The translations under genes and the position numbers were made by a program. Below, piece by piece: positions 2,871 to 60,899 of a stretch of DNA of 64,000 bases (position 1 is its first letter; every line of letters starts with the position of its first letter). This DNA is from Schmidtea polychroa (Eukaryota). The stretch spans positions 30,134,001 to 30,198,000 of the forward strand of contig CM097885.1 of the NCBI GenBank assembly GCA_044892525.1, written 5' to 3'. The notes under the pieces are model-generated. The model did not search any database and had not been told where the DNA came from. It worked only from the letters and a program-made list of their open reading frames with translations.

Positions 2871-3260
<390 letters not shown>

Positions 3261-14439: not shown

Positions 14440-14510
14440 AGTAATTTTTAGGACTTGAATTTTGATTTTATATAATTATGAGATCATTATTCAAGTTCTT
14501 AAATATTACT
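14440..14510 (+). ncRNA. Candidate bantam-family pre-miRNA hairpin 1 (predicted 3p product 14479-14500)
   Basis: ~33-bp stem with G:U pairs and a small terminal loop; 3' arm TGAGATCATTATTCAAGTTCTT; lies in intron GTAAGT(14423)...TTTCAG(14565). Confidence 0.7.
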
Positions 14511-14682
14511 GTTAGTCATCATTTATAATTTATCATTTATAAATATATTAATAATTAAATTTCAGGTGTTTTTTTAGGAAATTTATGATATTTTATGCAT
14601 TAATATGGAATTATTTCGCTAAAATGTAAGTTAAATATTTTTATATTTATAAATAAATAAAGTAATCACCATACACATTTTA

Positions 14683-15269
14683 CGTTGCATAAAAATTGGC
14701 TTCGACAAAATCCAACAAATTATTTCCCTGTTCTTCTGAAATAATTTGTTTTCTGCCACTTCTTTTTCCTTTTGTAATTTCGGCATATTTCTTATATTTG
14801 TAAATTATTGAAATAATTGAATTTTTGGGGATTCCGAGCAATCTTCCAAATTCTTTATAATTGTCCCCATTTTCAAATGCATTAATAAGCCGAATTTTGT
14901 TTATTCCTGTAATTCTTTGAAAATATTAATTTGTTAAAATAATTTATTAAAATTTACGATTTGCGATTTTTTTCCTGCAAATTCGAAGTTGTCGAAGGAC
15001 CTTCTTCAATATTTGAAATGGTACCTTCATGCAAAGAAATATCTGTTATACTGTAAAATATTTTAATATTTTATATTTTAATGAATAAATCTTACATTGT
15101 CAGATCTTCAACTTCGCAAAAAGCCACTGTGTCCTGTGAAATATCTGTAAATCTAAAGAAATTTTATATTCCAAATTATTTTATAATTAAATCTTACGAT
15201 GTATCTTCTTTTTTTCCCTAAAGCTCAACGTAGAGCAGTCGGAGTCTGATTCAAAAGATTTTTGTACAT
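14683..15269 (-). pseudogene. Four-exon N-terminal fragment of a Tc1/IS630-type transposase
   Basis: GT-AG introns at 15197-15153, 15095-15051 and 14957-14915. The last exon reads ITGINKIRLINAFENGDNYKEFGRLLGIPKNSIISIIYKYKKYAEITKGKRSGRKQIISEEQGNNLLDFVEAN (HTH followed by a GRPR-like motif); the catalytic domain is deleted. Confidence 0.75.
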
Positions 15270-15765
15270 AATTTTTTAAATAATTTAAAAATATTGATAT
15301 GTTAATTATATGTTAATCAATCTTAATTTCGCATGAAAAACACTTTACTTAATTTTGTATGTATTTTTCATTATGTGTGCTGTGCTTGTATGATTAATTA
15401 TTTTCTCTCACTTTTTAGATTCCTATAATAAATATGTTAAATTTCGCGGCATTAAATTTCTACACACAGGTAAGTTTGTGTGTTCTTATAATATATATTT
15501 ATTGATTTTTTTTTAGATTATAGATAATGTTATATTTCGCGGTTAGGTGTATTTAGTCGAGAATTTCTTAACTATTGAGTTAAAAATATATTTGTATCTA
15601 GTTCTAGATTTCGAGGACGAAAATTATTTTTAATAGAGAGATATGTTGAGGTAATAGAATAATCAAATAAATTAATAGAAATAAAAATAAAAATTAAATT
15701 ATATTTATAATTAAATGAAGAAGAGATGTGAAAATTCGGTCAGGGATAGAATTGATAGAGTAAAG

Positions 15766-26688: not shown

Positions 26689-27432
26689 TAGGTGTCCCAA
26701 TAACTAATATCTATTATAATATATTATATTATAAAAATTTTACCTAAAATGCTTCATATTCGATAATTACTTGTAATATCATTGTTAGTATAATGAGCAT
26801 AGCAAAACTAATAGAAAAAGTAAAAAAGAAATCAAAGTCGCCCTTTAGCTTTGTCAATAAAAATTATTTGATTTTGTATATTGTTTATTGAACTCATATA
26901 AAAATGTAGGTTGATATTTTCAAAAAATAAATTCAATTATGACCCCTTGATAAAACGGTTTGGCATCACTGATTTAGTGATATATAGTAAAACAAAAAAT
27001 GATGTATTAACTAGTGCTATTAAATAATTTTAATAATCTCAAACAACTCTTTGCTGGTTGAATATCTTATTATATGTAATAATTGTCAATGCCTCACAGT
27101 CGTTTTTTCCAAAATTTATCAAAGTTATTATATACAAATTGAAATTTATTTAAATTGGTTCCCCTTTAACAATTGTTCAAATTAAATCAAGCCCATCAAC
27201 CGTTAGAATTATCAATTATCTATTTGACCATAGAAAAATCTGTTGAAAATTCAAGTTAAATATAAAACAAAATATTGATTTATTGCTTAAAAAATAAATA
27301 CACAAATATTAAAAATACAAATCGATTGAAGTTGAAAAAGATAAAATACTGGAGATCAAAATAATTAATATAATTTAATTAAACTTAATAAAAATAAAGG
27401 AAAATTTATTAAAACAAACATTGAAAAAACAA

Positions 27433-28062
27433 TTAGAATTCTATTGTTTCAGCAATTCTATCAAGGAGGTCCTCATTATTTGAAGTGTAAACCTTCATTG
27501 AAAGGTGTCTAAAATCACTATTGGAATCTGATTTGATTGTTATATTATTTGTAAGGTGATGAAAGGACTGGATTAGATTCAATTTCAATTTTGTTTTATA
27601 TTCGTCTTTTGTTTCAGTTACTGCATTATTGTTGTCAATAAATACTGACATAAATGTTGAGTTTTCAATTGTCAAATCCAGTTGCATTGGGACAATTGTT
27701 TTGACTTGGAATATATGAACGGTAGTTCCAATGTACGCATTGTCCACGGAATGTCGGAATAAAAAGATCCTGTATTGTTTAGTAATCTTCCACTGGACAA
27801 TTGTTTGTACCACAACATTTGGCTGAATTTCATTTTCATATCTGAAGTTATTGAAAGGTGTCCTGTCTAAAGGACACTTTGAGATTCGGTTTTGAAATAT
27901 TAAAGACAGGAGACATTTGTGATGAAAGAAATGGGTTTCACAACAGGAGGGAGAAACTATTAATGATAACTCATCAAAACTCTCATAACAAATTGTGCAT
28001 AAATTGTCTTCTTTCACGATATTATTGCAATTGTGATGTATTTGACTCAGTTGACAGCTCAT
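27433..28062 (-). CDS. RING-H2 finger protein (putative E3 ubiquitin ligase), copy 1
   Basis: 209-aa intronless ORF: CTIC...CCETHFFHHKC...CPLDR (Asp as last ligand), plus an unrecognised ~140-aa C-terminal domain; AATAAA ~25 nt after the stop. Confidence 0.8.
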   Translation of the reverse strand: MSCQLSQIHHNCNNIVKEDNLCTICYESFDELSLIVSPSCCETHFFHHKCLLSLIFQNRISKCPLDRTPFNNFRYENEIQPNVVVQTIVQWKITKQYRIFLFRHSVDNAYIGTTVHIFQVKTIVPMQLDLTIENSTFMSVFIDNNNAVTETKDEYKTKLKLNLIQSFHHLTNNITIKSDSNSDFRHLSMKVYTSNNEDLLDRIAETIEF

Positions 28063-29521
28063 TGAAAATTTTAAAAATAATTATAATTAAATTTATTTAA
28101 AAATAATTTCTTATATAGATCGAGTGATGATTTAATGAAATTAAAATTCCTTTTTTTACGGAATTTTTTCATCAGAAAATTGTTTCCTTAATTTTTAAAA
28201 AAATTAATTTAATTTTTAATTTAAATGAAAATGAATTAACAATGAATTCAAATTATTTGTAAAACGACATGACAATAATTATTTTTAGGTTATGAAATAA
28301 CCCTTTTTTACATTCATAAATTTTATAAATAGAAGTTGTAGTAAAATATAAACAGAAATAAGCCTTTTTCAGTCTATTAAACAAATAAAATTTATAAAAA
28401 TATTTTCATATTTCATGAATTGAAAAGTAAAGTTTGTACAATCTTTTTACCGTTTTAATCTATTTGTAAGAAAGGCAATAAATATATTTTTATTTGTTTG
28501 AGTTGGCATAAATAAAGGTTGTTTTTATAATTCGTAAAACGGTTGTAAAAATAAAATAAACAAAAAATATTTATTTTAATGCCAGAGATATTTTGGAAGT
28601 TATTGAAAATAGATAAACACTCTTATTTCTTTTTAATAATTTAGCTTTTGTTGTATTGAGGATTCAAATTTTTTTTTGATTTTGCTTGAAAATATATTAT
28701 AAAAAGTTATGAAAATTTACTTCCAAAGATATGATACTTATGTTAGAGGGTAGACTCATCGACACATTAGTCCTATCTAAATACTGTAGTACAAGGTCAA
28801 ATAGATATCGAGTTAATATACTAGGAATAACCATCAAAGTGCATGTCAGCTCCACCCCAAAATCTCAACATCAAACATTCACAATATATCTATCATCTTA
28901 TAGTATTTTTTAAGGATATAATCAAATCAATCATTCAACTTTTTTAATTCAACATCAATCCAATCCAAACCCAACATCATTTATATGACATTTATTATGA
29001 TAGACAATTTATTGATGTGATTTGACATTCTAATAATTTATTTAGTGAGACAGTCAATTTATTATATTTTAGTATTAATTAAAAATTATATATTTATGAT
29101 CAATTTATTATTTTTATTTATTATTATAAAACAATTTATTATTAACAAATATGGTTAAATTTATTAACATTGAAATCAACAGAAATGAAAAATTAAAGTG
29201 TTTTAAAATGACAAAACAAATATAAGAAAAATCAATTTAAGTGTTTTTTGTTTGACATATGGGTAAAATAAATAAATAATTTGTATAAAAGCTGAAACAA
29301 AATTAGAAAAATTGCCACAAAATATTTTGGACCTTGGCGTTAAAAACATATATCATAGATTGACTCAAGGTAATCTTGTTCAGTCTCTAAAACTAAAATA
29401 AGAAACACAAAGATTTACAAAAAATCCTTGCATTATGAACATAACATGCACACAATAAGGTATTCAAATACATTGATATTTATATAACACATCTGAACAT
29501 TGAATTTTTATCTGTTTAAAG

Positions 29522-30476: not shown

Positions 30477-33400
30477 GAGTGTTGTAACTAGGGTGGGGCA
30501 GCTGGGGCGGCCGCCCCGGGCGACAGCTCCGGGGGCGCAAAATCGATAAAATATTTAATTTTTATACTTAATATTATTTAAATATAAAATAAACTAATAA
30601 CTGATATATACATACATTAGCCTTATGTGATTAAAATTGTTTGCACAATAAAAAAGTAACAAAATTTATACACCTCTAAAAATTATTATATAAAATAGAG
30701 CTCTAAGGAAATTTTTTTGTTTTGTCAAATGATTTTTATAATAAATATTTAAAGAAAATAAAACAATTTTATTTTTTTTATAAATTTATAAGATTTGAAG
30801 TTCAAATTTTGAACCTTATGGTGGACACGGAAAAAATTTTTTACCGACATCTGTCGAATTTTATCGACATTTGTCGAAACTATTGTATTTTTTGGCGCGC
30901 TTTATATTTTCTATTGTTCTTTTTTGAATTTTAACGGATTTCTTGCCTTGTCCACTCTATGATTTGAACCTTAAAATTTGAATTTACGCATGAATTTTTT
31001 CTTTCATTAAAAATATTCGTTGCATAAGAAATTCAAACTTCTAATAAAAATATTATTATAATCAAAAATAAATGAGAATTAATTTATTTTTATCTTCAAG
31101 AGTGATAAATTCTTAAAAAGTGGTAAATTTTATCATATTTTTAATTCATTACTGTAAGTGTGATTAAATATTTGTAAATTTATTAGTGAAAATATAATTA
31201 TGAGTGAAAATTGAATATTTATTAAGAATTTTTATTAATTATTTTTAATTAGTGTTTAAATTAATAAAAGTTTTAACAAAGCAAAATGTCAGAAAATGAA
31301 CCCAGTGGATTTCAACGTCGTTAAAGACAAAAAGTTTTGGAGGAAGAGGCAAGAAAATTAAGTCAACTGATGAAAACTTTTCTTAAAAAGACTAATATGA
31401 ATGATAATAATTTTAATACAATTCAAAATGAATCAGATGATGAAATGCTTGATATTGATGAAACTGACTTGATATTGATGATTCTGACATGAAAAGTGAA
31501 AAAGATAGTGATATAAATAGTGTGAAAGATATTGAGATAGTCGAGTATATTGAAAGTTCAAAGTCTCAAAATATTGATATACTCAACGTATTAAAACATC
31601 ATGATATGGGATTTATTGATTATGATTCAATTCAGCCAAAAATCTCTCACAATGTTTTCAAAGAAATTGTATCGCGTGGTTCAGCATTATTTCAAAATTC
31701 CAATTCTGAATTTGATTTAAGTGGTGGACGATCTATGAATGCTGCATGGTTTAAGCGAATTTTGCTAATGGAACTGAAGTAAATTGAACTTGGCTTGTCT
31801 ATTCTCCTCATAAAAAAGCAGCTTTTTGTTTTTGCTGTGTATTATTTTATAACTCCAATTGCAAATCCTCATTTTCATCACTAAATGGTTTTAACAGCTG
31901 GAGACACACTGAGAGAGTTCAAGATCATGAAAATAGTGCAGTACATCGTAAGTTATTTTCAATTTCTGGTCTTCAAAAGAGAATTTGTAATTTGAATCAT
32001 CGAGCTTTATTTATAAATTGCGACAATCATAGTCTTAATCTGGCTGGACTACACTCAGCTGCAACTGATTCAATTGTAATGACATTTTTTGGCTCAATTA
32101 AGAAAATATTTGCTTTTTTTCACGTTCTACTTTACGATGGCAAAAATTAAAAGATGCTGTACAATTAACTTTGAAATGTGAAACAACCACAAGATGGAGT
32201 GCAAGATCTGAAGCTGTAAAAGTATTTTTTTTGCAACTCAATGAAATTATAGATCTTCTTGAAGAACTTTCTGAAGACTCCAATCAAACAACACAAAATT
32301 TTCTTGGTTTGATTCATTTTTGGCATAATGTTTTGAACAAAATTGATCTAGTTCAAAAAAGATTACAAGATCCGAAAATGAATTTTTTGACGCAGCACTT
32401 GATTTAGATGGACTTAACCCTTTTATACGGAGTGTACAATATATTGTACACAGTTTTGTGTGCTGAATATCTGTTGTACATTTTCGAAAATATAATGTGA
32501 GAAGTACTTTTTAAGAAAATTGAAATTTGTTCTAGTACATTTTAATAATTTTGGCGCCAAATAGTGACATTTTCAGTATTTTTCAGTTGATTTTGTGAAG
32601 AGCACACGCAAAAAGAAAAATTAATTCCCGAATGAAAGGGTTAAAGAAACTTTAATTGAAACGCGTGAATATTTATGTGCAGCTGCTATAGAATTTGCTC
32701 AAGGAAAATGTACAGAATGGGACATTCAAATTTTGAGAAGAATTCGTCGAGCAAAAAAAGGATAGGAGAAAAAGCTTTTGATAGTGGTCTAACGGTAATT
32801 TAAGAGCTCGATCGTGTGTTAAAAAGCATCATTGACAAATTAATACAAGAAATGAACAGTCGATTTGAAGCTCTTAACAATTTAAATTCAAAATTTGGAT
32901 TTTTATTAGATGTCAAAAATCTTTTACGTAATGAGAGTGTTGAGGGCTTAAAAAGAAAGTTGCACATATTTTAGTAACTTCTATAAAACTGATGTTAGTG
33001 GTGAAGAGTTGTTTAATGACATTATAGATTACAGAATGCTTTTAATGAGCCGAAAAGATGCACAACCAACAAATTCATTGGATCTTTTAAAATTTATTGT
33101 GTCTTATGGAGATGATAGTTTCCCCAGTTTGAGAACATCTCTTCAATTTCTACTTACAATTGGAATCTCGATTGCCAGTTGTGAACGTTCATTCAGTAAG
33201 CTTAAATTAATTTTATCATATTTAAGAGCATTAATGGGACAAGATAGGCTAAGTGATCTCGCATTATTAAGTATAGAACGTAAGGCAACAGAAAAAAATT
33301 AATTTTGATGAAGTAATTGATAAATTTGCATCAGTAAAATCAAGGAAAATTAACTTGTAATATAAATAAGATGAAATATAATAAAATTTAAAAGAAATTT

Positions 33401-34843: not shown

Positions 34844-34845
34844 TA

Positions 34846-35931
34846 CACCTAATTCCGAAAGTTAAAAGTTTCTATAATCTAAAAAAATCGTAAAAATTAT
34901 AATATAGGAACACACAAACTTACCTGTGTGTAAAGATTTAATGTTCCGAAAGTTAGAAGTTTTATTACAGGAATTCAGAAAGTGACAGAAAAATAATTTT
35001 ACATACAAACACAGCACACATAAAATAAAATACATGCAAATTTATTATAGCTTTTTTTATTCCGAAAGTTAAAAGTAATTAACATTTTGTAAACAAATCA
35101 TTATTTTTAATATATTAAAATTCATGGCAGAAAAAATTTTTGATTTTCAATCGGACAACTCTACTTTGAGTTTTCGATAAAAGGACGACAAAACACCGTA
35201 AAATCTATTTATAAAATATTTTTGAAGTTATTATTTCTTTAGATATTTAGATATTTCTCTGGAAACGCTAGTTTTTAAGAAGGTGAAGAATTGACAATGT
35301 AAGAATTTTTTCATTTAATTACAAATAATTAAAATATTTTAAAGTATATCAGATATTTCTTGTCAAACGACTTTGTGTGAAGGTAGCATTTCTAATATTC
35401 AACAAGGTCCATCGGAAAACGTAAATTTTAATAACTTGTATAAAAAAATAATAATTTCATAGAATTACATAAAAAGACAAAATTCACCATACCAATGACC
35501 TGGAGAAAGAAGATTACAAAAACTTAACAAAGTTCTCCGCTTCTTCCTTAAATGTCTTAAAAAAATAAATGTGTTTGATGATTTCTTTATTTATTTATAG
35601 TTAAAATTATTAATCAAACTTACATTTTATCGAAATAATTCCAAATAAATTCATAGTCATACAAATCCTAAAGAAACCCTGAAAATGAATTAAAAATAAT
35701 TTATAATCAAAATGTTGACTACAAGTAACATTTAAGAGCTTGAATAGTGATCTCATAATTTTATAAAATCAAAATTCAAACCTTAAAAGTTACTTAAATT
35801 AAAAAAACTTACTTGTAAAATTGAATAAATGAAATGAAGTAAATAACTTCACATTCTCATAAATGGTGAGTCATCGACTGATGAACAGGCCAACGTGTAT
35901 TATAGAGACTTTAAACTTTTGGAATTAGGTG
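34846..35931 (+). mobile_element. CACC-ended Tc1/IS630-like transposon (copy A2)
   Basis: TIRs CACCTAATTCCGAAAG / CTTTTGGAATTAGGTG; TA flanks; spliced exons beginning ATGGCAGAAAAA at ~35124; C-terminal-like KVLRFFLKCLKK. Confidence 0.88.
35724..35794 (-). ncRNA. Candidate bantam-family pre-miRNA hairpin 2 (variant UGAGAUCACUAUUCAAGCUCUU, 35755-35734)
   Basis: Same stem as hairpin 1 with compensatory pairs; intron donor at 35812 and acceptor at 35679 conserved. Confidence 0.68.
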
Positions 35932-36560
35932 TACACCAAACACCATTGAGAACCGTTTACTATATTATAACAAAAAAATCAATAATCTTAAATTATAGAA
36001 ACATACATACTTACTTTGATTTCACATTGATGTTCTCATTTATAGCTCAGTGAGATACATCTTATATTATAGAAATCTGAAAAGTGGAAGAAAAATTTAA
36101 AACTGCACACAAACGCAACACATATTAAAAAACACATACAAACTTTTGATTCGTAGAAATGTAACGATGAGATACGTTTCTATAATAATTCTATTTTAGA
36201 CAATTTTTAGAAAAAAAAGATCGTTGAAAATTTTTTAAATTATATTTTTAATGAAAATATCAAGAACAGATGAATTTGGTTCAATATCTTTTTACTCCAG
36301 ATTTGATTTCCTTTAAGAATCCCTTCATATTGATCTCAGAAAAAAATTTACAAAAATTAAAAAAATTATTCTAATCAGCGATTTTTCCCAAAATGTTTTA
36401 AAAAAATACATTGATTGATATATTTATTTAATTAATTATAATTAAAATAATATATCGAACTCACATTTTTTTGAAATAATTCCATGATAAATGTCATAAA
36501 ATTCCTAAAAAAACCATGAAAATTAATTAAAAATAATTTATAATTATATTGTTGATTAAA

Positions 36561-36630
36561 AGTAATATTTAAGAACTTGAATAATGATCTCATATCTATA
36601 TGGATCAAAATTCAAGTCTTAAAATTTACT
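36561..36630 (-). ncRNA. Candidate bantam-family pre-miRNA hairpin 3 (3p product 36592-36571)
   Basis: Identical 22-mer; different apical stem (TGATCCATAT-AG-ATATGAGATCA) that still pairs; flanking splice sites appear degenerate in this copy. Confidence 0.66.
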
Positions 36631-36819: not shown

Positions 36820-36888
36820 GTAATATTTAAGAACTTGAATAATGATCTCATAATTATATAAAATCAAAACTCAAGCCTTAAAATTTAC
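36820..36888 (-). ncRNA. Candidate bantam-family pre-miRNA hairpin 4 (3p product 36850-36829)
   Basis: Identical 22-mer; complementary 5' arm; GTAAGT donor upstream on the same strand (ACTTAC 36904-36910). Confidence 0.66.
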
Positions 36889-37753: not shown

Positions 37754-37996
37754 TGTAAGATGATATAATAATTTCCAAAGAATTACTTACATAACTATTG
37801 AATGATGCATGAATGCTTGTATAACTAAATTAAGTAAGTATGTTTGTCTTCTGTGTCAACAGTATCACTTAAACTAATAATTCTCCCTTTTGTAGATTAT
37901 GCAATTCAATGTACTATAAATAGTATAACGATTGTGTGTTCCGTTTAGATTTTGTAGTGAATAAATATTTCTGTGAAACTATGTCTTTTTCTAACA
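37754..37996 (+). repeat. 5' LTR (243 bp)
   Basis: Matches the 3' LTR by eye except for a 22-bp indel. Confidence 0.95.
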
Positions 37997-39069
37997 TGGC
38001 GACCACGCCAGGACTCCAGAACTATATCAAGCCACCTAATCAATTGCTGCCAAATGGTGATTTAGAAATTTTTATTTTGGAATTGAAGAGATTTTTCGAA
38101 TTCACTCAACAACCGCAAGAAACTCAAGAAATTTTTACCAAGGCCTTTCTGTCGGTAGAGTTGATCCAGAAATATGAAGAAGTACAGAGCGATTATTCAG
38201 GCTATGAAGAAAGATTAAGAAAAGCGTTCGAGCCAAGGAAAAATCTAGCCATGGATCTAGACGCAGCTTTAAGATATCGAAAGGAAATGACTCGTGCACC
38301 GAATTTTTCAATAAAGTGGAAAAGCTCGTCGACAATGTTCTTCGACACAAATTAACAAAACCGGCATTAATGTTATTTTTAATGCAGAATGCAATGGAAG
38401 ATATGGAAACAAAAAAAAGAATTGAAATTAAGAGAAGTTAAATCAGTAGATAAGGCCAAGGAAGTGATATCAAGAATGGAAGAAATTCAAAAAGAGCTTT
38501 CAAGTGAGCAATCATTAGCATCTCTACATGAAAATAAATCATATGCGGAGACAGTCAAAAGTCCGAGAAAAACTCAGTTGTACCAACAGAATAAGACGCC
38601 AATATTTTCTAACTCTAGAACCAATGAGGCCGCGAACTTCAATATGCCAAATAAAAGTGACTGGAAGAACGGGACCAGGCGATTTAAACTGCAGAGATGT
38701 TGGGCGTGTGGAGAGCAAGGACATATTCGAGCAGAATGCCCAAACGTAAAATGCTCTCAATGTTCCAAAAATGGTCATTTCAAGCATCAATGTTGGGACA
38801 TCAGAAGAAATTCAGTTAAAACAGAAGCATATTACAACGGAAGAAATTATGATAGAAACCAAAAACAATTTGGATCCAGAGGACAATATCAAAGCACAAA
38901 CCAATCTTCAGACAGAGGACCACATCGAAGACAATGCAATGCGATATACGACTACGAATACGAGGAAGGAGAGCTGATTCAACAGGATGACATGCAAAAA
39001 GATTGCGAACAGCTAAAAGGGGAGGCTCCAGTTTCAAGGGAGTTGCTAGGAGCCATAAATTTGGTTTAA
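37996..39069 (+). pseudogene. gag, two frameshifts
   Basis: MATTPGLQ... with shifts near 38280 and 38415 in A-runs; two CCHC knuckles, CWACGEQGHIRAEC and CSQCSKNGHFKHQC. Confidence 0.85.
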
Positions 39070-42000
39070 GTAAGTATATTGTTGACACAGAATGTTTGAA
39101 TTTGAATGCTTGTGATTTCAAGATTTCCGTAATGAATGAATTTAAAAATGATTTAAAAATTAATGATGTAATTATGAATGATTGTGAATGTTTTGACTTT
39201 GAAAATTATTTTGAATATAGTTTTTATGAAATTAATAACAAAATTGATAAGATTATGAGTATCGATATAATTAATAATAAAGTTAATGAAAATAAAGAAA
39301 GACCTTTTGCACCTAAATTCGTTTACGAAAGAATGAATGGCAGACCTAGTGTAGGTATTTGGCTGGAAAATAAAATAAAAGTTGATTGTCTTTTGGATAC
39401 CGGGGCTAGAATAAACGTGATTAGCGAAGATGTTGTTAGTAAATTAAAGATGCGTGATAAAATAGGGGAATCCAATATTATGGTTACATGTGCAAACGAG
39501 AGCACACTTAAAATCATAGGAACAATATTACTAAAAGTGAGAATTTCGGGATTGGAATTGGTAATAAGATTCTTTGTGGCAAATAAGATTAACCCGAGCG
39601 TAATTGCAGGCGTAGAAATGATGAATTGTTTTGATATTAAATTACAGGCAGTAACTAAAGTAAAATTAAAAAATCAATTAATGAATTTAGAGGAAAACAA
39701 TTTGAAAGGAATTATCGACCCAACGATTAATAAATTACTTAAAGAATTTTCGGATATATTCATGAAAAATAAATGGGATGTAGGAAAAACACAGTTAATT
39801 AAACATAAGATAGTTACTAGAGGTAGCCCAGTGACAATTAATCCTAGACGTCAGCCGATTCATATTGCTCACAAAATACAAGACATGCTAAAAGACATGG
39901 AAGAAGCAGGAATTATAAAAAAAAATGTGACTCGGTGTGGAATAGCCCATTGGTATGTGTGTTAAAAAAGAATAAATCAGATATTAGAATATGTTTGGAT
40001 TTTCGGGCACTAAATGCAATTACGGAGAGACCTCGATTTCCAATACCAAATATTGAAGAGATGATGGATATCCTAAATGGAGCACAGATATTTAGCACTA
40101 TCGATCTTGGTAATGCTTATTATCAAGTGGAATTAGAAGAGGAATCAAAAATAAAGACTGCATTTTCAACAAAAGATGGTCAATATTGTTTTAACCGAAT
40201 GCCTTTTGGAATTGCAGCTGCTCCAGCAACTTTTCAAAAATTAATGACTCAAGTTTTGGGTGATCTTAATTGGAGAGAAGCAATTGTTTATTTAGACGAT
40301 ATCCTTATATTTGCAGATAATGAAATCGAACATAAAAAAAGACTAGAAAGAGTTTTTCGAAAGATTCAAGAAGCTGGTTTGAAAATAAGCTTAGAAAAAT
40401 GTTGTTTTAACAAACTAGAAATAAAATTTTTGGGACACATTATAAATAAAAATGGTATTAAGACAGATTATGAAAAGATAAAAGCAATGCAAGAATATGA
40501 AAAACCAAAATGTATTAAACGTTTAAGAAGCTTTCTAGGCTTAACAAATTATTATCGAAAATTTGTTAAAGATTACGCCAAGTATGCAAGACCATTAGAA
40601 AGGTTATGTGGGTCTAACAAAGATAAACTTATATGGACTGAAGAATGTGAAACAAATTTCAACACGCTAAAGAAAGCGTTAACGTCTACCCCAGTACTAG
40701 GATTTCCGGATTTACGAAAAACCTTTATTTTAGATACAGATGCTAGTTTCGATACGATTGGGGGAGTGCTTTCGCAGTTGAGTAGTAATGGACAAGAACA
40801 AGTTATTGCATATGGATCAAAGACAATGAATAAGCACGAAATCGGTTACTGCATTACGCGAAAGGAATTGCTTGCAATCTATCATTTTACTCAGCATTTC
40901 AAACACTATCTATATGGAAAAAGATTTACTTTAAGAACCGATCATAAAGCTATAACCTTTATGATAAATACAAAAAAGCCAATTACAGCACAATTCCAGA
41001 CATGGATTAACTATTTAAGTGGGCTAGATATCAAATTAGAATACAGAAAAGGAGAATTGCATGCTAACGCAGATGCCCTATCAAGGAAAGACTGTACTTC
41101 ATGTAGTCAGTGCCAAACAGTTCATGAAAACGCCAAGGTAGATAAAAATAAAACTAAAATATTGGCCATAGAAAATATGGACCAAGAAATAAAAGTAAAT
41201 AATGAAGGTGTAATTTTTAATATACATAAAGACTTATGTCACGCAGGGGTAAAAAAAATTTACGAATATGCACGGAAAAATATGAAAATGAAAATTAGTG
41301 AAAATGAAGTTAGAAGAGTGATTGAAAATTGTGAACAGTGTCAGAAACGGAAGACGTGGACAAGACGAACAAAAGAACCGCTGATTAAACAGAGTACAGA
41401 TGAAGTTTTCAAAGAGATATTTATTGATTTCTGTGGACCATTTAAGAAAACAATTCATGGAAAACAATATATTTTAGCTATAATTGATCAATTCAGTAGG
41501 TATATATCATTGACGGCAGTTGCTCATCAGGATGAAAAGACGACGGCAAAGATTTTAAGAGAAAATTGGATTTTGAAATTTGGTGCCCCTAAAATAATTC
41601 ACTCCGATAGAGGAAAAACATTTGAATCTCAACTCCTTTTAGAAGTGTTGAAAACGCATCATATTACAATAATATATTCAAGCCCATATCATCATAGTAC
41701 AAACGGTTTAGTTGAGAGGCAATTTAGAACTATAAGGGATGCAATTGCAATTACGTTAAAAGACAAACGGCATAAAGATTGGGCAGAAATATTGCCAGAT
41801 GTTAAATGCTACGATACAGCAGACAACCGGATTTTCGCCCTCTGAAATAATATTTGGGCGGAATATTTGTAGACAATGGATGGAAAAAGAGAATTTGGAT
41901 ATACAAAATAATGATGCTAATAATCAGAGAAGGGAGATCGTGGAGGGAATTAAACATAAACAAAACATAGAAAAGAATTTAATTACACAAAATTATAGGA

Positions 42001-42188
42001 ATTTTGAAGTTGGAGACCAAGTATTGGTTAAAAAAGAAAATACTAGAAAGATGGATGAACGTTATGAAGGGCCTTATGAAATAACTGGAAAACGACATGA
42101 CAGAATCTATGTTCTAAAGAATAAGCAAGGCAAAGAAATAATTCGAAATGTAGAATGGATCAAAAGTTTTAAATGGAGGGGGATGTAA
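39003..42188 (+). pseudogene. pol (protease, RT, RNase H, integrase), frameshifted near 39920 and 41800
   Basis: LLDTGA, YLDDILI, DTDAS, NADALSR, HKDLCH...CEQC, IDFCGP, HSDRG, NGLVER, YEGPY. Confidence 0.93.
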
Positions 42189-42448
42189 GATGATATAATA
42201 ATTTCCAAAGAATTACTTACATAACCAGGTCACTAGACCTTTATATCTATTGAATGATGCATGAATGCTTGTATAACTAAATTAAGTAAGTATGTTTGTC
42301 TTCTGTGTCAACAGTATCACTTAAACTAATAATTCTCCCTTTTGTAGATTATGCAATTCAATGTACTATAAATAGTATAACGATTGTGTGTTCCGTTTAG
42401 ATTTTGTAGTGAATAAATATTTCTGTGAAACTATGTCTTTTTCTAACA
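42184..42448 (+). repeat. 3' LTR (265 bp)
   Basis: Follows the PPT; carries an extra CAGGTCACTAGACCTTTATATC. Confidence 0.95.
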
Positions 42449-42501
42449 ATACTTAATAAAAATAAAGGAAAATATATTAAAACAATCATTGAAAAAAACA
42501 A

Positions 42502-42623
42502 TTAGAATTCTATTGTTTCAGAAATTCTATCAAGGAGGTCCTCATTATTTGAAGTGTAAACCTTCATTAAAAGGTGTCTAAAATCACTATTGGCATCTGA
42601 TTTGATTGTTATATTATTTGTAA
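42502..42623 (-). pseudogene. 3' fragment (last ~40 codons) of the RING gene
   Basis: Matches 27433-27554 and 44448-44569 with a few substitutions; its 3' flank continues on the far side of the gypsy (37690-37753). Confidence 0.88.
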
Positions 42624-43045
42624 TGTTTCAAGAAGAGATAAAAAATTATAAAATTTTACAAAATAAAACTGTTCCCAAATAAACTTTATTTACATTTACT
42701 GTTTGAAAATGTTGTTCCATTTTGTAAAATTGTTCTTCGGAAAGCTTCAGCAATTTTCTGAATATCATTTGAAACTTTGAAAATAGCTGATTCTGATTGA
42801 TTGGCAGAAATTTCAACATTCATATATGATATTATGCTATTATAGTTTTTTCCACATATAACTCACGGTAGTGACGGCTTGTAATCAAAGATTTTGTGAA
42901 AGCAATAAAAAAATTCAAAAAAAGAATTTTATTTATATAAAAACTCAATTCTTCTTATTTTTCTACAAAATTCTTTAATTACTAAATCATAAAAATTGTC
43001 TTTAGTAGCCAAAAGTACTGTTTAAAAGATTAAAAATTTAAAATA

Positions 43046-44009
43046 CACCTAATTCCGAAAGTTAACATTGTTTATAATGCACGTTGGTGTGCACACCAGT
43101 TATGGTGACTCACCATTTGTGTGACATTTGTGTGTAATTTCATTTTTTCAATTTTTCAAAAAACGTTTTCAGGTAAGTTTTTGAATTTTAAGTAACTTTT
43201 AAGATTTGAATTTTGATTTTATATAATTATGAGATCATTATTCAAGTTCTTAAATATTACCTTTAGCCAACATTTAAAAAACAACATTAAAAAAAACAAC
43301 ATTTATAATATAAAATATTGATAATTAAATTTCAGGTGTTTTTTAGGAATTTTATGAATTTATTTGGAATTATTTCTATAAAATGTAAGATAGATATATT
43401 TTTAACTAAAAATACATAAAGTAATTACCGAAGACATTAATATTTTTAATACAAATAGGAAAGAAGCAACGTACATGGATAAAATAGTTATTTTAAATTT
43501 AAGCCGAATTTTGTCTTTTTCTGTAATTCTATGAATTGATTAATTTCTTTTTAATTTAATATTTTGTATTTTAATGAATTAATCTTACATTGTCAGATCT
43601 TCACCTTGGCAAAAAGGTAGCATTTCCAGAGAAATATATGAAAATCTAAAGAAATATTAACTTCAAAAATATTTTATAAATAGATCTTACAATGTTTTAT
43701 CGTCTCTTTTTCTACAGACCAAAGTAGAGTTGTCCGATTCTAGATAAAAGAAATTTTCCCCCATCATTTTAAAATTTATTAAAATTAATAACATATTAAC
43801 AATATGTTAATCAATGTTTAATTTCGGAAAAAAACACTATATTAATTTTGTATGCTTAATTATTTTTCTCTCTTTTTTAGATTCCTATAATAAATATGTT
43901 AACTTTCGAGGCATTAAATCTTTACACACAGGTAAGTTTGTGTGTTCCTATAATATAAATTTATTGATTTTTTAAGATTATAGGCTATGTTAACTTTCGG
44001 AATTAGGTG
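43046..44009 (-). mobile_element. CACC-ended Tc1/IS630-like transposon (copy A3)
   Basis: Perfect 23-bp TIRs CACCTAATTCCGAAAGTTAACAT / ATGTTAACTTTCGGAATTAGGTG; TA flanks; homologous exons. Confidence 0.9.
43191..43260 (+). ncRNA. Candidate bantam-family pre-miRNA hairpin 5 (3p product 43230-43251)
   Basis: Identical 22-mer; intron GTAAGT(43173)...TTTCAG(43335). Confidence 0.68.
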
Positions 44010-44447
44010 TATATAATTTCTCAAAATTGAAGTGCAAGCAATACTTGCATTGCTTATATGGGTGGGCCGCCACTGACTCACGGGCTATTCTAGCACCTTT
44101 TCCTGTCCACTATATATATATATATATTTCAAATTTTTCCACCGAATTTAACTTACCGTATATCAAATGTTTTTTACCGGTTTGATTAGAATTCGTGGTT
44201 TAAATGAAGGTGTGACAGATACCAACCTGCAAGGTATTTACGGGAAAAATACAGTAGTTGACAAAAAAGATTAAATTGTAAGTATAATAAAAAACTTAAT
44301 CCAAAACTTAAGACCAGAACAATAATGAAAAATAATACGTTTGATAATTTCAAAATCTACTCACTCAAAATCAAAACATTTAATAAAATGTAATCAAACT
44401 TAATCAAAATAAAGGAAAATTTATTAAAACAAACATTGAAAAAACAA

Positions 44448-45077
44448 TTAGAATTCTATTGTTTCAGCAATTCTATCAAGGAGGTCCTCATTATTTGAAG
44501 TGTAAACCTTCATTGAAAGGTGTCTAAAATCACTATTGGAATCTGATTTGATTGTTATATTATTTGTAAGGTGATGAAAGGACTGGATTAGATTTAATTT
44601 CAATTTTGTTTTATATTCGTCTTTTGTTTCAGTTACTGCATTATTGTTGTCAATAAATACTGACATAAATGTTGAGTTTTCAATTGTCAAATCCAGTTGC
44701 ATTGGGACAATTGTTTTGACTTGGAATATATGAACGGTAGTTCCAATGTACGCATTGTCCACGGAATGTCGGAATAAAAAGATCCTGTATTGTTTAGTAA
44801 TCTTCCACTGGACAATTGTTTGTACCACAACATTTGGCTGAATTTCATTTTCATATCTGAAGTTATTGAAAGGTGTCCTGTCTAAAGGACACTTTGAGAT
44901 TCGGTTTTGAAATATTAAAGACAGGAGACATTTGTGATGAAAGAAATGGGTTTCACAACAGGAGGGAGAAACTATTAATGATAACTCATCAAAACTCTCA
45001 TAACAAATTGTGCATAAATTGTCTTCTTTCACGATATTATTGCAATTGTGATGTATTTGACTCAGTTGACAGCTCAT
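44448..45077 (-). CDS. RING-H2 finger protein, copy 2
   Basis: Protein identical to 27433-28062; I see one synonymous difference. Confidence 0.8.
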   Translation of the reverse strand: MSCQLSQIHHNCNNIVKEDNLCTICYESFDELSLIVSPSCCETHFFHHKCLLSLIFQNRISKCPLDRTPFNNFRYENEIQPNVVVQTIVQWKITKQYRIFLFRHSVDNAYIGTTVHIFQVKTIVPMQLDLTIENSTFMSVFIDNNNAVTETKDEYKTKLKLNLIQSFHHLTNNITIKSDSNSDFRHLSMKVYTSNNEDLLDRIAETIEF

Positions 45078-45274
45078 TGAAAATTTTAAAAATAATTATA
45101 ATTAAATTTATTTAAAAATAATTTCTTATATAGATCGAGTGATGATTTAATGAAATTAAAATTCCTTTTTTTACGGAATTTTTTCATCAGAAAATTGTTT
45201 CCTTAATTTTTAAAAATAAAAAAATTAATAAATTAATAATTTTATATATATATATATATATAGATAGTATTGTT

Positions 45275-47458
45275 TAGAGTTGGGTTTCGAGAATTTCCCA
45301 ATGGGAATTCTCGAGAAATTTTCGAGATTTTCCATCCCGAATCTCGAGAATTTAAATTCTTAACATTTCGGGAATTTATTTTTTCAATAGTTCTATAATT
45401 ACGTCTTAAACAAATCATAGCAAAATTGGCGGCAAAAGAAGGGAATTTCAATCAACGCTATAACAAAAAGTGAGTTCATGCATCGGTTCTTTGGAATTCC
45501 GTCTTCCAAAATGTCACAAAGCTGTTCTTCGTTTGGTCATGAACTACTGTGGACCATCAAATGTGATTTGAGGAATAAAATTGCAAATTTAAAATCGGAA
45601 CAACGTAAGTTTAGCTTGAGCATAGACGAGTGGACAAGCGTTCGAAACCGACGTTACATGAACGTTCATATCTATTATGACGACGGAGAATCTGACAACC
45701 TTAGGCTTGTGCGAATTCAGGGATCATGTCCCTCAGAAAAAGTATATGAGCTCTTAGATGCAAATCTTTCAGACTTCAATTTGAACTTCCAGTCGGACAT
45801 CGTCTCTATTACAAGTGATGGTACCAATGTGATGATCAAATTCGGGAAACTATCACCAGCGCATCAACAGTTATGCTAAATTCACGACATACACTTGGCA
45901 GTTATGGAGGTAATGTATCAGAAACGAAAACGTACAAACAGGATATACGAAAGTGATGTAAGCGATGGAACCACCAATGTTGAAAATAATAATCAAAACG
46001 ATTTAGATTGAGGTGAGGATTCGGATGAGGAAGGCAGTCGAAGCGATGAAGATGAAGACAATTCAGCCAATACGCCTCCTTCCTGGGAAAACGATTCTAA
46101 TAGCATGGATGATGATGTCATATTCGTTTCTGATAAGACGGTCACTTTAAAGTCGGATTTTGAAATCGTATGCATAGTCCGAAAGATTGTTTTGAAATTC
46201 AAGAACTCGCCGGTACGAAATGCTCTATTGCAGAGTTATGTTAAAGAAGTTGAGAAGAGCTTTTCTTGCTATTGGATTATAAGACACGTTAGAACAGCTT
46301 TGAATTGATGCTGATGAGGTACACTCGCATCAGCAAGCACGTTCGTAGGGCACTTGACACGCTCAATTTAACGGTTATGGCAACTACTGATGCAGAAGAA
46401 AAGCATTGTGAGAATATCATTAATGCTCTAAAACCTATTCGTTTTGCTGTCGAAGCTCTCAGCCGCCAAAATGTGAACTTACTTGCAGCGGATTTTATTC
46501 TTAAAGATTTGTTCACAAAATTGGAGAATCAGCACACCGAATTATGCAACGAGTTTCTATCCAGCCTTAAAAGAAAACTAGCAGATCATAGATCTAGCCT
46601 TTTATTATCTGTCTTTAAATATTTGCAAGATCCGGTAAACAGCGGTTGCGATCGTGATAAATCTGCATTCTTCCAGATGTGTTCCAAAATAGAATTAATT
46701 AAAGAAGCCAAAGCGTACCTGGTTCATCTTTTTTCTACAAGCATTAAAGAAGAGCAAGCAGTTTCTGATTCTGCCAATGATGCCGTGATTGTGAACAACA
46801 GCGTTGAAGAAGAAGATATGGCGAAACAACTTGAAAACTATGTCCAGCAATGCTCAAAACCAAAAGAAAACATTGCATAACATGCGTCAAACGAACTTTT
46901 TCCGTCGTTTAAAAACGAACTAAATATATATGAAAAAAGTGGACAGAAAACACAAAACGTTCCAAAGACTGATCTGGGCTTTTAATACAATTAAGCCAAC
47001 TTCGACTCAAAATGAGCGCAATTTTTCTACGTCGGGGAATTTTGTTTCGCAAAAGCGTACGCGATTTTGTCAGACGCAGCTATTGACAGTCTGTGTTTTC
47101 TGAAATTTTATTTTAGTAAATAATATTTTTGAATTATTTTTGTTTTTGTGCTATATTCTATTTTGTTTTTATAAGTATGTTTTGAATTATTTTTGTTTTA
47201 ATACTTTATTCTATTTTAATAATAATGTTTTGAACTATTTTTGTTTGACTACTTCTATTTTGTTTACAACCTTTTACGACTTTAATTACTTTAATTTATT
47301 GTTTACTACTTCTTATTTAAATAAAAAACATATTTTTTCGAATTTCTTTTTTTTACAGGTTTTCTAAATTTTCTCGATTTCTCGAGAATTCTATAGAATT
47401 TGTTTCGGGAAATCCCGAATCTCGAGAATGTGATTTTCTTGGGAAATACCTAACTCTA
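45275..47458 (+). mobile_element. hAT element (Ac/hobo-like) with decayed transposase
   Basis: TIRs TAGAGTTGGGT / ACCTAACTCTA; 8-bp TSD GTATTGTT; subterminal CTCGAGAA repeats; peptides FSLSIDEWTSVRNRRYMNV, ITSDG and IKPTSTQNERNFS. Confidence 0.92.
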
Positions 47459-51276: not shown

Positions 51277-51414
51277 CTTACATTATAGAAACATACATAC
51301 TTACTTTGATTTCACGTTGATGTTCTCATTTATAGCTCAATGAGATACATCTTATATTATAGAAATCTGAAAAGTGGAAGAAAAATTAAAAACTGCACAC
51401 AAACGCAACACATA

Positions 51415-52359
51415 CACCCGTTTGCGAAAGTTAACATTGTCTATAATATACGTTGGTGTGCACACCAGCTGAGGTGTGTCACCAATTATATGACAACGTT
51501 AACTTAATTTCATTTATTCTATTTTTTAAAAATCGTTTTAAGGTAAGTTTTTGATTTAAAGTAATTTTTAGGACTTGAATTTTGATTTTATATAATTATG
51601 AGATCATTATTCAAGTTCTTAAATATTACTGTTAGTCATCATTTATAATATAACATATTGATAATTAAATTTCAGGTGTTTTTAGGAATTTTATGATATT
51701 TTATTTGGATTTATTTCGAAAAATGTAAGTTAGATATTTTTATAATTATAAATAAATAAAGTATTCACAAAACATTTATTTTTTTAAGACATTTAGTAAA
51801 GAATGGATAAAATATTTTTTAAGTTTTTGTAATCTTCTTTTGTCTTTTTCTGTAATTCTATGAAAATATTAATTTGTTAAAATAATTTATTAAAATTTAC
51901 GATTTGCGATTTTTTTCCTGCAAATTCAAAAATGTCGAAGAACCTTCTTCAATATCTGTAAATCTAAAGAAATTTTATATTCTAAATTATTTTATAATTA
52001 AATCTTACGATGTATTTTCTTCTTTTTCTCTAAAGCTCAAGGTAGAGCAGTCGGAATCTGATTTAAAATTTTTTTGTGCATAACTTTTTAAATAATTTGA
52101 AAATATTAATATGTTAATTATATGTTAATCAATGTTAATTTCGCAAAAAAACACTTTACTTAATTTTGTATGTATTTTTCATTATGTGTGCTGTGTTTGT
52201 ATGCTTAATTATTTTCTCTCACTTTTTAGATTCCTATAATAAATATGTTAAATTTCGCAGCATTAAATTTCTACACACAGGTAAGTTTGTGTGTTCCTAT
52301 AATATATATTTATTGATTTTTTTTAGATTATAGATAATTTTATATTTTGCAAACGGGTG
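51415..52359 (-). mobile_element. CACC-ended Tc1/IS630-like transposon (copy A4) nested in the B-type copy
   Basis: TIRs CACCCGTTTGCGAAA / TTTTGCAAACGGGTG; the empty site CATATTAAAAAAC at 36121 confirms a TA duplication. Confidence 0.92.
51560..51630 (+). ncRNA. Candidate bantam-family pre-miRNA hairpin 6 (3p product 51599-51620)
   Basis: Identical to hairpin 1; intron GTAAGT(51543)...TTTCAG(51675). Confidence 0.7.
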
Positions 52360-52801
52360 TATTAAAAAACACATACAAACTTTTGATTAGTAGAAATGAA
52401 ACTATGAGATACGTTTCTATAATAATTCTATTTTAGACAATTTTTAGAAAAAAAAGATCGTTGAAAATTTTTAAAATTATATTTTTAATGAAAATATCAA
52501 GAGCAGATGAATTTGGTTCAATATCCTTTTACTCCAGATTTGATTTCCTTAAAGAATCCCCTCATATTGAGCTCAGAAAAAAAATTACAAAAATTAAAAA
52601 AAATAGTTTAATCAGAGATTTTTCCCAAAATGTTTTAAAAAAATACACATTTTTGGTGATTTATTTATTTATTAATTAATTATAATTAAAAATATATCGG
52701 ACTCACGTTTTTTCGAAGTAATTCCAAGATAAATATCATAGAATTCCTTAAAAACCCTGAAAATTAATTAAAATTAATTTATAATTATATTGTTGATTAA
52801 A

Positions 52802-52870
52802 AGTAATATTTAAGAACTTGAATAATGATCTCATATCCATATGGATCAAAATTCAAGTCTTAAAATTTAC
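52802..52870 (-). ncRNA. Candidate bantam-family pre-miRNA hairpin 7 (3p product 52833-52812)
   Basis: Identical 22-mer in the divergent B-type element; donor (CTTACC ~52885) and acceptor (CTGAAAA ~52757) retained. Confidence 0.68.
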
Positions 52871-53080
52871 TTTAAATTTAATATCTTACCAGAAAACTAT
52901 TTCTAAAATGGCTGAAATAAATTTCATGATGAGCAATTCATACGTAAAAAAAATTACTGACAACTTTGCTTTATTTATCATCAACATCAGATGAAAATTC
53001 ATCAGTAAATTGGTGAGTGAGCAATCGCTCTACACGCAAACCACCACTATAGAGAATGTATCTCAGTGGTGTTTGGTGTA

Positions 53081-53490
53081 CACCTAAATCCAGAATATAA
53101 AAGTTTCTATAATCTAAAACAAAAATCGATAAAATTATATTATAGGAACACACAAACTTACCTGTGTGCAAAAGTTTAATGTTCCGAATGTTAAAATTTT
53201 ATTATAGGAATTGAGAAAGTGACAGAAAAATAATTTTACATACAAACACAACACACATAATATAAAATACACGCTTATTTAATGTAGATTTTTTTATTCC
53301 GAAAGTAGAAAGTAATTAACATACTGTTAACATATCATTAATTTAAAATTATTAAAATTCATGGCTGAAAAAAAATTGGATTTTGAATCTGACAACTCAA
53401 CTTTGAGTTTTCGAGAAAAGGATGACAAAACATCGTAAGATCTATTTATAAAATATTTTTGAAGTTAATATTTCTTTAGATTTTCAGATA
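53081..53490 (+). mobile_element. Truncated CACC-family copy (transposase 5' end)
   Basis: TA-CACCTAAATCCAG; exon MAEKKLDFESDNSTLSFREKDDKT from ATG 53361, then an intron GTAAGA...TTTAG. Confidence 0.8.
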
Positions 53491-55299
53491 TTATCTTTAT
53501 TCCATTTTTGTTGGCTTTTTTTTATTTCAGCTACCTGTTTTTTTGTGGTGTTTCTCTGGCTGAAGGATACAAAGTAAATCTAATAGTTAATGGATTCAAA
53601 ACCATACATTGATAGAATATAACCTTTACTTTTTAATGCTGCAAATACTCAAACCTTATTTCTAACCTTCTCTCTTTCGTTTCGTTTTCAACTATCGGCT
53701 TTTACTTTTTATTATGATTTTTTGCTCGCTCACTTTTTTCATCCCATTTTAATCTATTTGGTTATTCCATACCATATTTTTCTCTCTTTTTTATTTTGTT
53801 ATAGATATTTTTACATTTTTTCATTCTAATTTTCGCTTAATTCTGTTCTTTTTTCTCCACTTTCTCTAGACCAATGATAGCTTTTTCTTCATATCTTTTT
53901 TGTTTCATGTGAGATTAAACCAAAATAAAGAAATAAACATGGTAATAATTTTACTATTGAATATACATTATTATGTTTGATTGAATAAATTTATAATCAA
54001 TTTTCATTGAACTGACTTAAATGAAAAATAAATATTAAAAACATTATATACAGTTAAAAAAAATAACATAAATTAAATTAAATTTTGTTTTAATGAAATC
54101 AATACGAATTATCTAAAATTTATTTAAAATGTTAAAAAAATTGAGGGAAACACCTCAATATTGTAAAGTCCTAAGATAATTATAATCTCGAAGATTAGAT
54201 TGACAATTAAGGAGTTGAAAGCTCCAAAAAAAATTGAAAATCAATTTAAGATTCAAGAAAAAATTCAAGTAAAAAATCTTTTGAATTTAAATATTTCAAC
54301 TTAAGTTACAAATCACTAAAATTTAATTTCAACGAATAAAACAATTTTATATATTGAAATGTGATACAAAAATACAAAAATACACTAGTAAAGTTTATTA
54401 AAAATATTAAGGAATAACAAAATCTAGAAATTAATATATTTGGAGGAGGGAGCAGAAACTGGTTGTAAATGTTGAAAAAGACATTGCTAAAACAGGGGAT
54501 CTATACCTATGTTGGGTTATTGGGTTGGTTGAAGTATTTAAAAGTTACCAATCAAATTTCTGACTCCAAAGCGTGTTTTATCTGATTCACAAAATAACAA
54601 TTCTTAGACAAGAAAAAACTTTATTGATTATCACAATTGATAACACGAATTATAACAACACGATCAATTCAACACTCAAATAGATAATCATCCAGAGTTT
54701 ATTACAACATTACACCAGGAAAAGGTCTTAAAATAGCTCTCGTAATTCCCAAATACTTAACAATCACCAGCCACTAATCTGACTTAATAATTTGGTAAAT
54801 TGAATTGAATTCTCCTTTGCTTTGACTTGAATTTATTCAGTATATTTAAACCTTTCTTATTAAACTCAATTTTATCGCACCATTTAGTTACAATATTTTT
54901 TCTTCTTTCCAATTTCTAACTTCTTACTTCTAATTTCTCTAATTTCCAATTTTTTTAATTTTCCTCTACTGTTTAATTCCGAAATATTTTCTCGACTATC
55001 TTTTTAATTTTTTCCTCGATCACTAACTTTTGATTCCATTAACAAGACTTTTGCTTTTTAGCACTTGTCCGACACTTGTGAGAATTAATTTTTTTCATTC
55101 CTGTCACTTCATAATCTATAGAATTCCTGTGTTATCACTGACGGTTCCAAAATATGACATATTTCGCACTTTTTTGTTGTTCTGTCTTTTCCTGCACTCC
55201 TGATATCTATGACAGGCTGTCAAGACATAAATATTTCTCTTGTCTTATTTTTTTATAGTGTTGGGTTAGAACTGATTTCTAGAACCCAAATTTAGGAAT

Positions 55300-58200: not shown

Positions 58201-58227
58201 ATACTAAATTATATCACATTCATAGAC

Positions 58228-59695: not shown

Positions 59696-59838
59696 TCATA
59701 GACAGTTAAATTACATTTCATTTAAAATTATAAATTCATAATTTTTCGTAAATGACCCCTCCCCCCATATGTGGTAATCTTATAAAAATATAAATTTACA
59801 TTTGTTGTTATTGTTATTATTATTATTATTATTATTAC

Positions 59839-59888
<50 letters not shown>

Positions 59889-60860: not shown

Positions 60861-60899
60861 GTCTCCTTGGTCCTGAGAAATAGGTGGTCTACACTAAAA

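Follow-up and report, generated by a model that had tools for sequence, protein, structure and literature searches.

The window, a 64-kb stretch of Schmidtea polychroa DNA analysed at its full length, contained a non-autonomous transposable element with a microRNA-precursor-like hairpin close to one of its ends. The parts of this element were placed as follows, with the basis of each assignment in brackets.

34844..35933, no strand assigned: 1,090-bp non-autonomous element of the Tc1/IS630 type, subfamily C, both terminal TAs counted (homology limits among copies)
34844..34878, plus: terminal inverted repeat (TIR) of the far end, beginning TA-CACC (matches the reverse-complemented opposite end at 32 of 35 positions)
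34879..34923, minus: small GT-AG intron by the far TIR, on the hairpin strand (one contig of sequencing run X1 lacks the homologous 47-nt intron of L079, an autonomous copy)
35624..35678, minus: predicted exon 2 of a non-coding antisense transcript, with a second GTAAGT donor after it (sequence and alignment)
35679..35812, minus: captured host intron of 134 nt, GTAAGT ... TTTCAG, enclosing the hairpin, with splicing predicted (homology to the intron of the host bantam locus L062)
35724..35794, minus: pre-miRNA-like hairpin of the mir-753 family, C-subfamily form (Rfam and folding)
35734..35755, minus: predicted mature 3p arm, UGAGAUCACUAUUCAAGCUCUU (register set by comparison with the mir-753 consensus of Rfam and with the host bantam loci)
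35748..35754, minus: bantam seed GAGAUCA, nt 2-8 (0 lineage-level versus 34-38 single-copy changes)
35762..35782, minus: predicted star arm, inferred from the 2-nt overhang rule (predicted structure; the run -24..-18 is free of lineage-level change)
35899..35933, minus: TIR of the hairpin end, its TA common to the TIR of an adjoining B-type element (sequence)

Six further hairpins of the same kind were found in the window, one of them opposite a transposase remnant.

14445..14505, plus: hairpin 1, subfamily A1, inside the element at 14292-15551 (Rfam, 61.8 bits)
14683..14925, minus: N-terminal helix-turn-helix (HTH) remnant of a transposase, on the strand opposite hairpin 1 (PF25787 HTH_SB, E 1e-7)
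36566..36626, minus: B-type hairpin (Rfam, 65.2 bits)
36824..36885, minus: hairpin with an intermediate G:U at -26/18 (Rfam, 64.3 bits)
43195..43256, plus: E-type hairpin with an intermediate C-A mismatch at -34/27, in the element at 43044-44011 (Rfam, 54.8 bits)
51565..51625, plus: A1-type hairpin (Rfam, 61.8 bits)
52807..52867, minus: B-type hairpin (Rfam, 62.0 bits)

Similarity between copies of the focal element stopped at 34844 and 35933, and contigs from the sequencing run left the element at 34844 into many differing flanks. Its TIRs of 35 bp with TA at both ends are those of an IS630-Tc1-mariner element. Autonomous copies of approximately 2 kb were found by searching with the HTH remnant of the hairpin-1 element, which showed 98% identity to complete open frames of 341 codons at other places in the genome. 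These frames encode an HTH-DDE transposase (PF13358, E 7e-19; PF25787, E 9e-8), as expected for the superfamily. In Tc1 proper (DD34E) the second Asp and the Glu are separated by 34 residues, whereas this spacer was 28 residues long both in the carrier family and in a hairpin-less sister family. The closest database relatives of the transposase (L079:1501-2523) were unnamed metagenome proteins, 41-48% identical, and the enzyme possibly belongs to an undescribed IS630-Tc1-mariner clade. Over 156 codons, the transposases of A1, A2 and D gave a dN/dS of 0.10-0.15 at a dS of up to 0.47; the codons came from long open frames, so that intact copies are over-represented. Among the loci collected, autonomous copies were lacking for subfamilies B and C. 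The transposase family of loci L098 and L159 was considered as the partner of the B-type copies and rejected: it is without the hairpin, and the B remnants are nearer to A1. The hairpin lay approximately 180-250 nt inside the TIR at the transposase 3' end, antisense to the transposase, flanked by a GTAAG donor and a TTTCAG acceptor. Some elements were nested or abutting, with a shared TA between TIRs at 35930-35937 and an inverted pair at 51413-53492 (51.4-53.5 kb); a preference for inserting at neighbouring TIRs was not apparent, such insertions being 4 of 154 cases.

The focal hairpin matched the mir-753 family of Schmidtea mediterranea (RF04089; miR-753a-e) over the full length of the model, with a score just below gathering (58.9 bits, E 8e-11; gathering score 62). 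All seven hairpins of the window matched this model (54.8-65.2 bits), three of them at or above the gathering score, and the 3p consensus of the model was the D-subfamily mature form. The match of the focal hairpin to bantam (RF00727) was weak, with 35.1 bits against a gathering score of 61. Since the three bantam-like host loci themselves scored only 50-58.5 bits, this cut-off is too strict for the S. polychroa genome. The minus strand of the focal hairpin folded with -28.9 kcal/mol (z -8.4), a value equalled by none of 200 shuffles (mean -8.2), and the plus strand with -16.1 kcal/mol. The bantam seed GAGAUCA occupied nt 2-8 of the 3p arm, and the plus (transposase) strand at 35748-35755 therefore reads as an 8-mer site complementary to it. 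Stable folding combined with the structure-preserving evolution described below is what a miRNA gene would display. The exact focal mature form was a minority form, found in 28 of the 100 listed among 127 exact C-type copies and in 6 of 60 C copies defined by their flanks; it is one of several variants.

Across the genome (781 Mb, with four large contigs), the mature 22-mer with two degenerate positions had 4,039 matches, and a control had 0; the C-type mature forms accounted for 127. A 141-bp query returned 1,426 candidate matches, and the 40 that were scored were all 99-100% identical. The density of seven hairpins per 64 kb far exceeded the genome mean of approximately 5 exact copies per Mb. 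Large tandem segmental duplications (C1:23.89-24.19 Mb and C4:42.9-43.9 Mb) further multiplied hairpin-bearing copies. One exact match in metagenome contigs, a candidate relative in another species, had neither hairpin nor element and was dismissed as chance. Between B1 and A1 the mature arms differed at 0 of 22 positions, the flanks at 48 of 179, and the transposase remnants were approximately 55% identical. The apical stem that the original prediction had described as rebuilt in B-type copies, GATCCATAT-AG/GG-ATATGAGATC, was present at 36566-36626 and 52807-52867; it folded with a 4-nt loop and a bulged A3, and not with the 2-nt loop proposed.

Compared position by position, the focal hairpin and hairpin 1 (14440-14510) differed at 8 of 71 nt. 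The basal pair -34/+27 was U:A in hairpin 1 and C:G in the focal copy (AGTAAT/ATTACT versus AGTAAC/GTTACT), the pair -26/+18 was A:U versus G:C, and its neighbour -25/+17 was C:G versus U:G. The remaining differences were at -28 (G versus A), loop position -6 and mature position 9 (U versus C). All three pair changes that had been claimed for the focal copy were thus present; the direction claimed at mature position 18 was reversed once the host gene was taken into account. The Rfam bantam search of the genome returned three host loci (L061, L062 and L063), each with the AAAGCU behind the earlier statement that AAGCU is typical of bantam 3' halves, which holds for them. Only L062 matched the element beyond the hairpin, from donor through acceptor, with 72-73% identity to C copies over approximately 148 nt (E to 2.5e-12; subfamily C scored best) and 70.5% identity to the focal copy over 139 nt. 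The comparison with host precursors that had been proposed as a means of finding the donor thus identified the L062 intron, and shared descent with a host bantam precursor follows from intron-wide homology to this locus only. L061 and L063, suggested as donors by their C at mature position 9, had no flank homology, and C9 arose within subfamily C.

L062 carries G:C at -26/18 and C:G at -25/17. The G:C pair at 18 is therefore ancestral and retained in C, D and F, and A:U is derived in A and B; G:U, as in the copy at 36824, is the intermediate. Two changes belong to the C lineage, namely U:G at 17 and C:G at the basal pair. The two paired changes in the focal copy are inherited subfamily states and by themselves no proof of selection. 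Element and host share the seed, the intronic position with donor and acceptor, the G:C at -26/18 and the U:G pairs opposite G2 and G4. They differ in two adjacent, fully compensated pairs at mature positions 13-14, where the element has UC instead of GA with star partners altered to match, and the element form has a shorter apical stem and is mobile and multi-copy. In the sister transposase family (approximately 54% amino acid identity), the hairpin was absent from 69 of 69 loci examined, so that the capture postdates the split from this family. A representative of the sister family (L159:310-1890) was approximately 1.58 kb long with a 339-codon frame, and intact copies that differ very little from one another were numerous. 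Inspection by eye also showed splice donor and acceptor motifs in antisense near both of its ends, and the antisense unit may therefore predate the capture.

For a test of selection, loci were collected through transposase matches (90 of 150, one of them the window itself, and 70 of 150) and through exon anchors outside the hairpin (70 of 109 and 30 of 1,396), together with bystander copies. The 368 profile matches contained 312 that spanned the module and 272 distinct insertions; after dropping 37 found through the hairpin, 235 remained. Changes were placed by parsimony on two trees, one built from the whole module and one from the flanks only. Terminal branches represent mutation after insertion, and internal branches, defined as those above at least 4 insertions, represent lineages that were still transposing.

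On terminal branches the seed changed 4.9 times per site, the loop 3.4 times and the flanks 3.6-5.5 times; split by base class, seed and invariant flank sites were alike. The seed was intact in 200 of 235 copies overall and in 44 of 60 in subfamily C. As single copies lose the seed at the flank rate, they decay neutrally. The ratio of internal to terminal changes in the seed was 0:34 on the whole-module tree and 0:38 on the flank-only tree, compared with 69:324 in the anchor-free intron flanks (p 0.003; 0.001 on the flank tree). The deficit was robust to clade thresholds of 3-10 on the two trees (p 0.0003-0.014). In 260 columns, all runs of at least 6 sites without lineage-level change fell in the star arm, the seed, mature positions 11-17, the stem base, a branch-point-like TAATTAA preceding the acceptor, and the acceptor itself. 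The run containing the seed was the longest (10 nt), and 0 of 133 flank 7-mers was unchanged. The splice acceptor region had 1 lineage-level and 58 single-copy changes (p 0.0004). Relative to mature positions 9-22 the seed was marginally more conserved (p 0.05-0.08), and relative to the opposing star bases p was 0.03-0.12. We relied on the intron-only comparison because the flank alignments are rich in indels, which may inflate internal counts. In 41 near-full-length copies, the hairpin had 9:22 internal to terminal changes and 4-fold sites had 60:69, a difference that was not significant (p 0.11), and the seed had 0:2. Internal changes per site in the same set were 0.13 for the hairpin, 0.58 for 4-fold sites and 0.22-0.23 for the non-coding flanks; the low value of the flanks relative to 4-fold sites hints at an exchange of modules between subfamilies.

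The structure gave a parallel result. Mean ddG was +0.17 kcal/mol for internal substitutions (n 40) versus +1.95 kcal/mol for terminal ones (n 301; p 1.5e-7). Among 12 representatives, 93% of cells paired, against 35-46% in slid structures. Six pairs were changed on both sides; the shuffle control disregards relatedness, and the result is hence descriptive. The basal pair -34/27 was U:A, C:G and A:U in three subfamilies, yet it was mismatched in 8 of 12 representatives and is therefore weak evidence by itself. At seed positions G2 and G4, resolution of the G:U pairs went through the star arm in four cases and through the seed in none (p 0.03-0.08). The original prediction had placed selection on RNA structure and the seed, with the seed expected to mutate less often than the loop. 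For the branches of multiplying lineages this was borne out, with no seed change and a fold cost near zero; for single copies it was not, the seed having mutated there at least as often as the loop. A seed that is free in single copies and fixed on multiplied lineages argues for selection on transposing lineages and not on each copy.

Contigs from a single run, X1, compared with an A1 copy, skipped a 47-nt intron on the hairpin strand and a 43-nt intron on the transposase strand, both GT-AG; the joined forms of both were absent from loci L001-L323 and from the window. On the contigs of this run, both strands of the element are transcribed and spliced. A junction across the hairpin intron was not among the 15 of 98 joints listed on the focal element, nor among the 7 listed on the autonomous copy, which we regard as neutral. 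The hairpin strand bears further GT-AG introns up to the far TIR (L079:908-954; window 34879-34923, minus), so that the transposase gene may sit inside an intron of an element-spanning, spliced antisense non-coding RNA. The tables of PMC5671611, where mir-753 is by its naming a Schmidtea miRNA family, contain reads for 3p and 5p entries of miR-753 (miR-753b, d and e; supplement 1, rows with names and no sequences). According to these supplement tables, miR-753 is expressed and its level shifts with condition. In sheet 1 of supplement 1, the entries named miR-753d-3p and e-3p stand at approximately 2,600-3,200 and bantam-a at 180,000-216,000, in the units of the table; at such levels the element would add only a few percent to the whole-animal bantam pool, which counts against the mimicry proposed below. 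The same source has bantam-a dropping upon depletion of planarian stem cells.

The interpretation builds on the following: the element shares an intron with the host by homology, its sister family is without the hairpin, copies number in the thousands, single copies decay neutrally, and seed, stem and acceptor are constrained in multiplied branches. A Tc1/IS630-type transposon took up the host bantam intron antisense to its transposase, and we lean, by a small margin of confidence, towards the view that it likely makes from this intron a bantam-seed miR-753 that would act on host targets to the benefit of the element. Bantam has a growth and anti-apoptotic role in Drosophila. An inward-facing promoter at the hairpin-end TIR would give rise to a spliced non-coding RNA, from which Drosha and Dicer would free the 3p arm; the miRNA would then help stem or germ cells with ongoing DNA cutting by the element to survive or proliferate, as viral mimics of host miRNAs do. 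Since a miRNA acts in trans, we place the filter at the founding or low-copy phase of each subfamily, and it would be the same filter that held the transposase at its low dN/dS. That selection in cis can maintain an RNA acting in trans is a matter of argument. The stronger form, in which the transposon uses the captured miRNA as an accessory gene under element-level selection, so that bantam activity lets jumping cells survive and outgrow their neighbours, is a serious possibility that we rate slightly below even.

The constraint could have a different object and be directed chiefly at the element, as the conserved sequence is also a bantam target site on the transposase strand, approximately 150 nt past the stop. 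Silencing of the transposase mRNA by host bantam, and by the miRNA that the element itself makes with perfect complementarity, would then keep the element tolerable to its host. The site AATAATGATCTCA indeed lies downstream of the transposase stop in L079, host bantam-a is highly abundant in the PMC5671611 table, and transcription and splicing of both strands in run X1 agree with it; such a site would be selected in cis, so that the problem of a trans-acting product vanishes. However, a self-made guide is complementary whatever its seed, and the invariance of the seed thus requires host bantam as the guide. A pure target site also leaves the conserved star arm, the stem and the antisense acceptor unexplained, and a transposase 3' UTR extending to the site is an assumption. 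We regard this self-restraint as rather unlikely to be the explanation; it can coexist with the mimicry of host bantam that we favour.

Two further readings were considered. If the hairpin merely hitchhiked, its conservation would stem from gene conversion between subfamilies or from quasi-palindrome repair copying one arm to the other. Exchange of the module is indeed likely, since the A1 and A2 flanks, which differ at 10 of 178 sites, are closer than their transposases (dS 0.24). In addition, lineage-level changes spared the fold of the opposite strand as well (p 3e-5 to 3e-3), and the 4-fold benchmark in the 41 near-full-length copies fell short of significance. Conversion is, however, not erasing changes now, as the seed of single copies mutates at the flank rate, and adjacent intron sites of the same module change freely where seed and acceptor do not. 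Folding energies of the common forms were between -27 and -33 kcal/mol for the hairpin strand and between -13 and -26 kcal/mol for its opposite, as G:U pairs in RNA predict, and the one-sided resolution of the seed G:U pairs likewise speaks against this reading. Conversion and hitchhiking are thus largely refuted, and we give an account without miRNA selection very little weight. Domestication, with a small number of copies acting as additional bantam genes of the animal under host-level selection, would fit the condition-dependent expression of miR-753 in the PMC5671611 tables. It appears just as improbable, as the constraint was seen on branches that yielded many dispersed insertions, that is, on source elements, and individual insertions decay. 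The comparison of internal with terminal branches is what distinguishes element-level from host-level selection.

Among parasites, viruses are known to encode miRNAs with the same seed as a host miRNA for growth or survival (KSHV miR-K12-11 and miR-155; BLV miR-B4 and miR-29). These are seed look-alikes, whereas here a cut-and-paste transposon captured the intron of the host gene itself. MITE-derived miRNAs, for example mir-548 from Made1, were likewise spread as many hairpin copies by a Tc1/mariner-type element; there the hairpin is the element's own palindrome, whereas the planarian hairpin is carried as cargo in the interior, bears no relation to the TIRs and predates the element. Both the mir-753 family and a transposon-borne miRNA in rice are already known. 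Rice miR820 resides in CACTA DNA transposons, so that a DNA transposon spreads a miRNA gene there as well, and compensatory evolution was taken as functional evidence (PMC3459959, PMC6719617). It is rice-specific and targets the silencing enzyme OsDRM2, whereas the planarian case concerns a deeply conserved animal miRNA captured in a host intron. The 2019 review (PMC6719617), in the part considered here, describes TE-encoded anti-silencing factors and host-gene regulators from plants only. The mir-753 family has been catalogued as a few miRNA genes; here it is the cargo of a DNA transposon, in at least 4,039 copies, with a copied host bantam intron, so that a catalogued planarian-specific family can be re-read as mobile bantam copies. 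If the stronger form of the favoured reading is true, miR-753 would be a growth-miRNA mimic encoded by a transposon in an animal, and the viral strategy of miRNA mimicry would extend to animal transposons, with element-level selection on a captured bantam in a stem-cell model organism for which RNAi and small-RNA data exist. We found no literature linking mir-753 or bantam to a planarian transposon, with PMC3840308, PMC3854530, PMC8728216 and bioRxiv 10.64898/2026.01.28.702291 covered by term search, although the primary planarian miRNA papers, their supplements, miRBase or MirGeneDB may already record a repeat origin. A term search of the main texts gave no mention of 753 or bantam in PMC3854530 and none of 753 in PMC5671611.

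Other features of the window included a Ty3/gypsy-like LTR element (37754-42448) with gag, protease and pol frames at 37924-42188 and terminal repeats of approximately 265 bp that were 92% alike; the element was identified by eye. A duplication of 860 bp (27355-28213 and 44370-45229, 98.7%), part of which also matched 42451-42626, carried an identical 215-codon frame with a motif resembling a RING finger by eye. Frames or fragments of hAT-type transposases were recognized by eye at 5463-7130, 31468-33302, 45421-46880 and 58396-59286. Judged by eye, the intronless frame at 8998-9408 (plus) is presumably DAD1/OST2-like, and we take the frame at 1784-2635 (minus) to be similar to rhodopsin-type GPCRs. 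Dense tandem arrays of 101-bp, 30/61-bp and degenerate 14/21-bp CA-rich units filled 56927-63486, with a strong strand skew at the end of the window.
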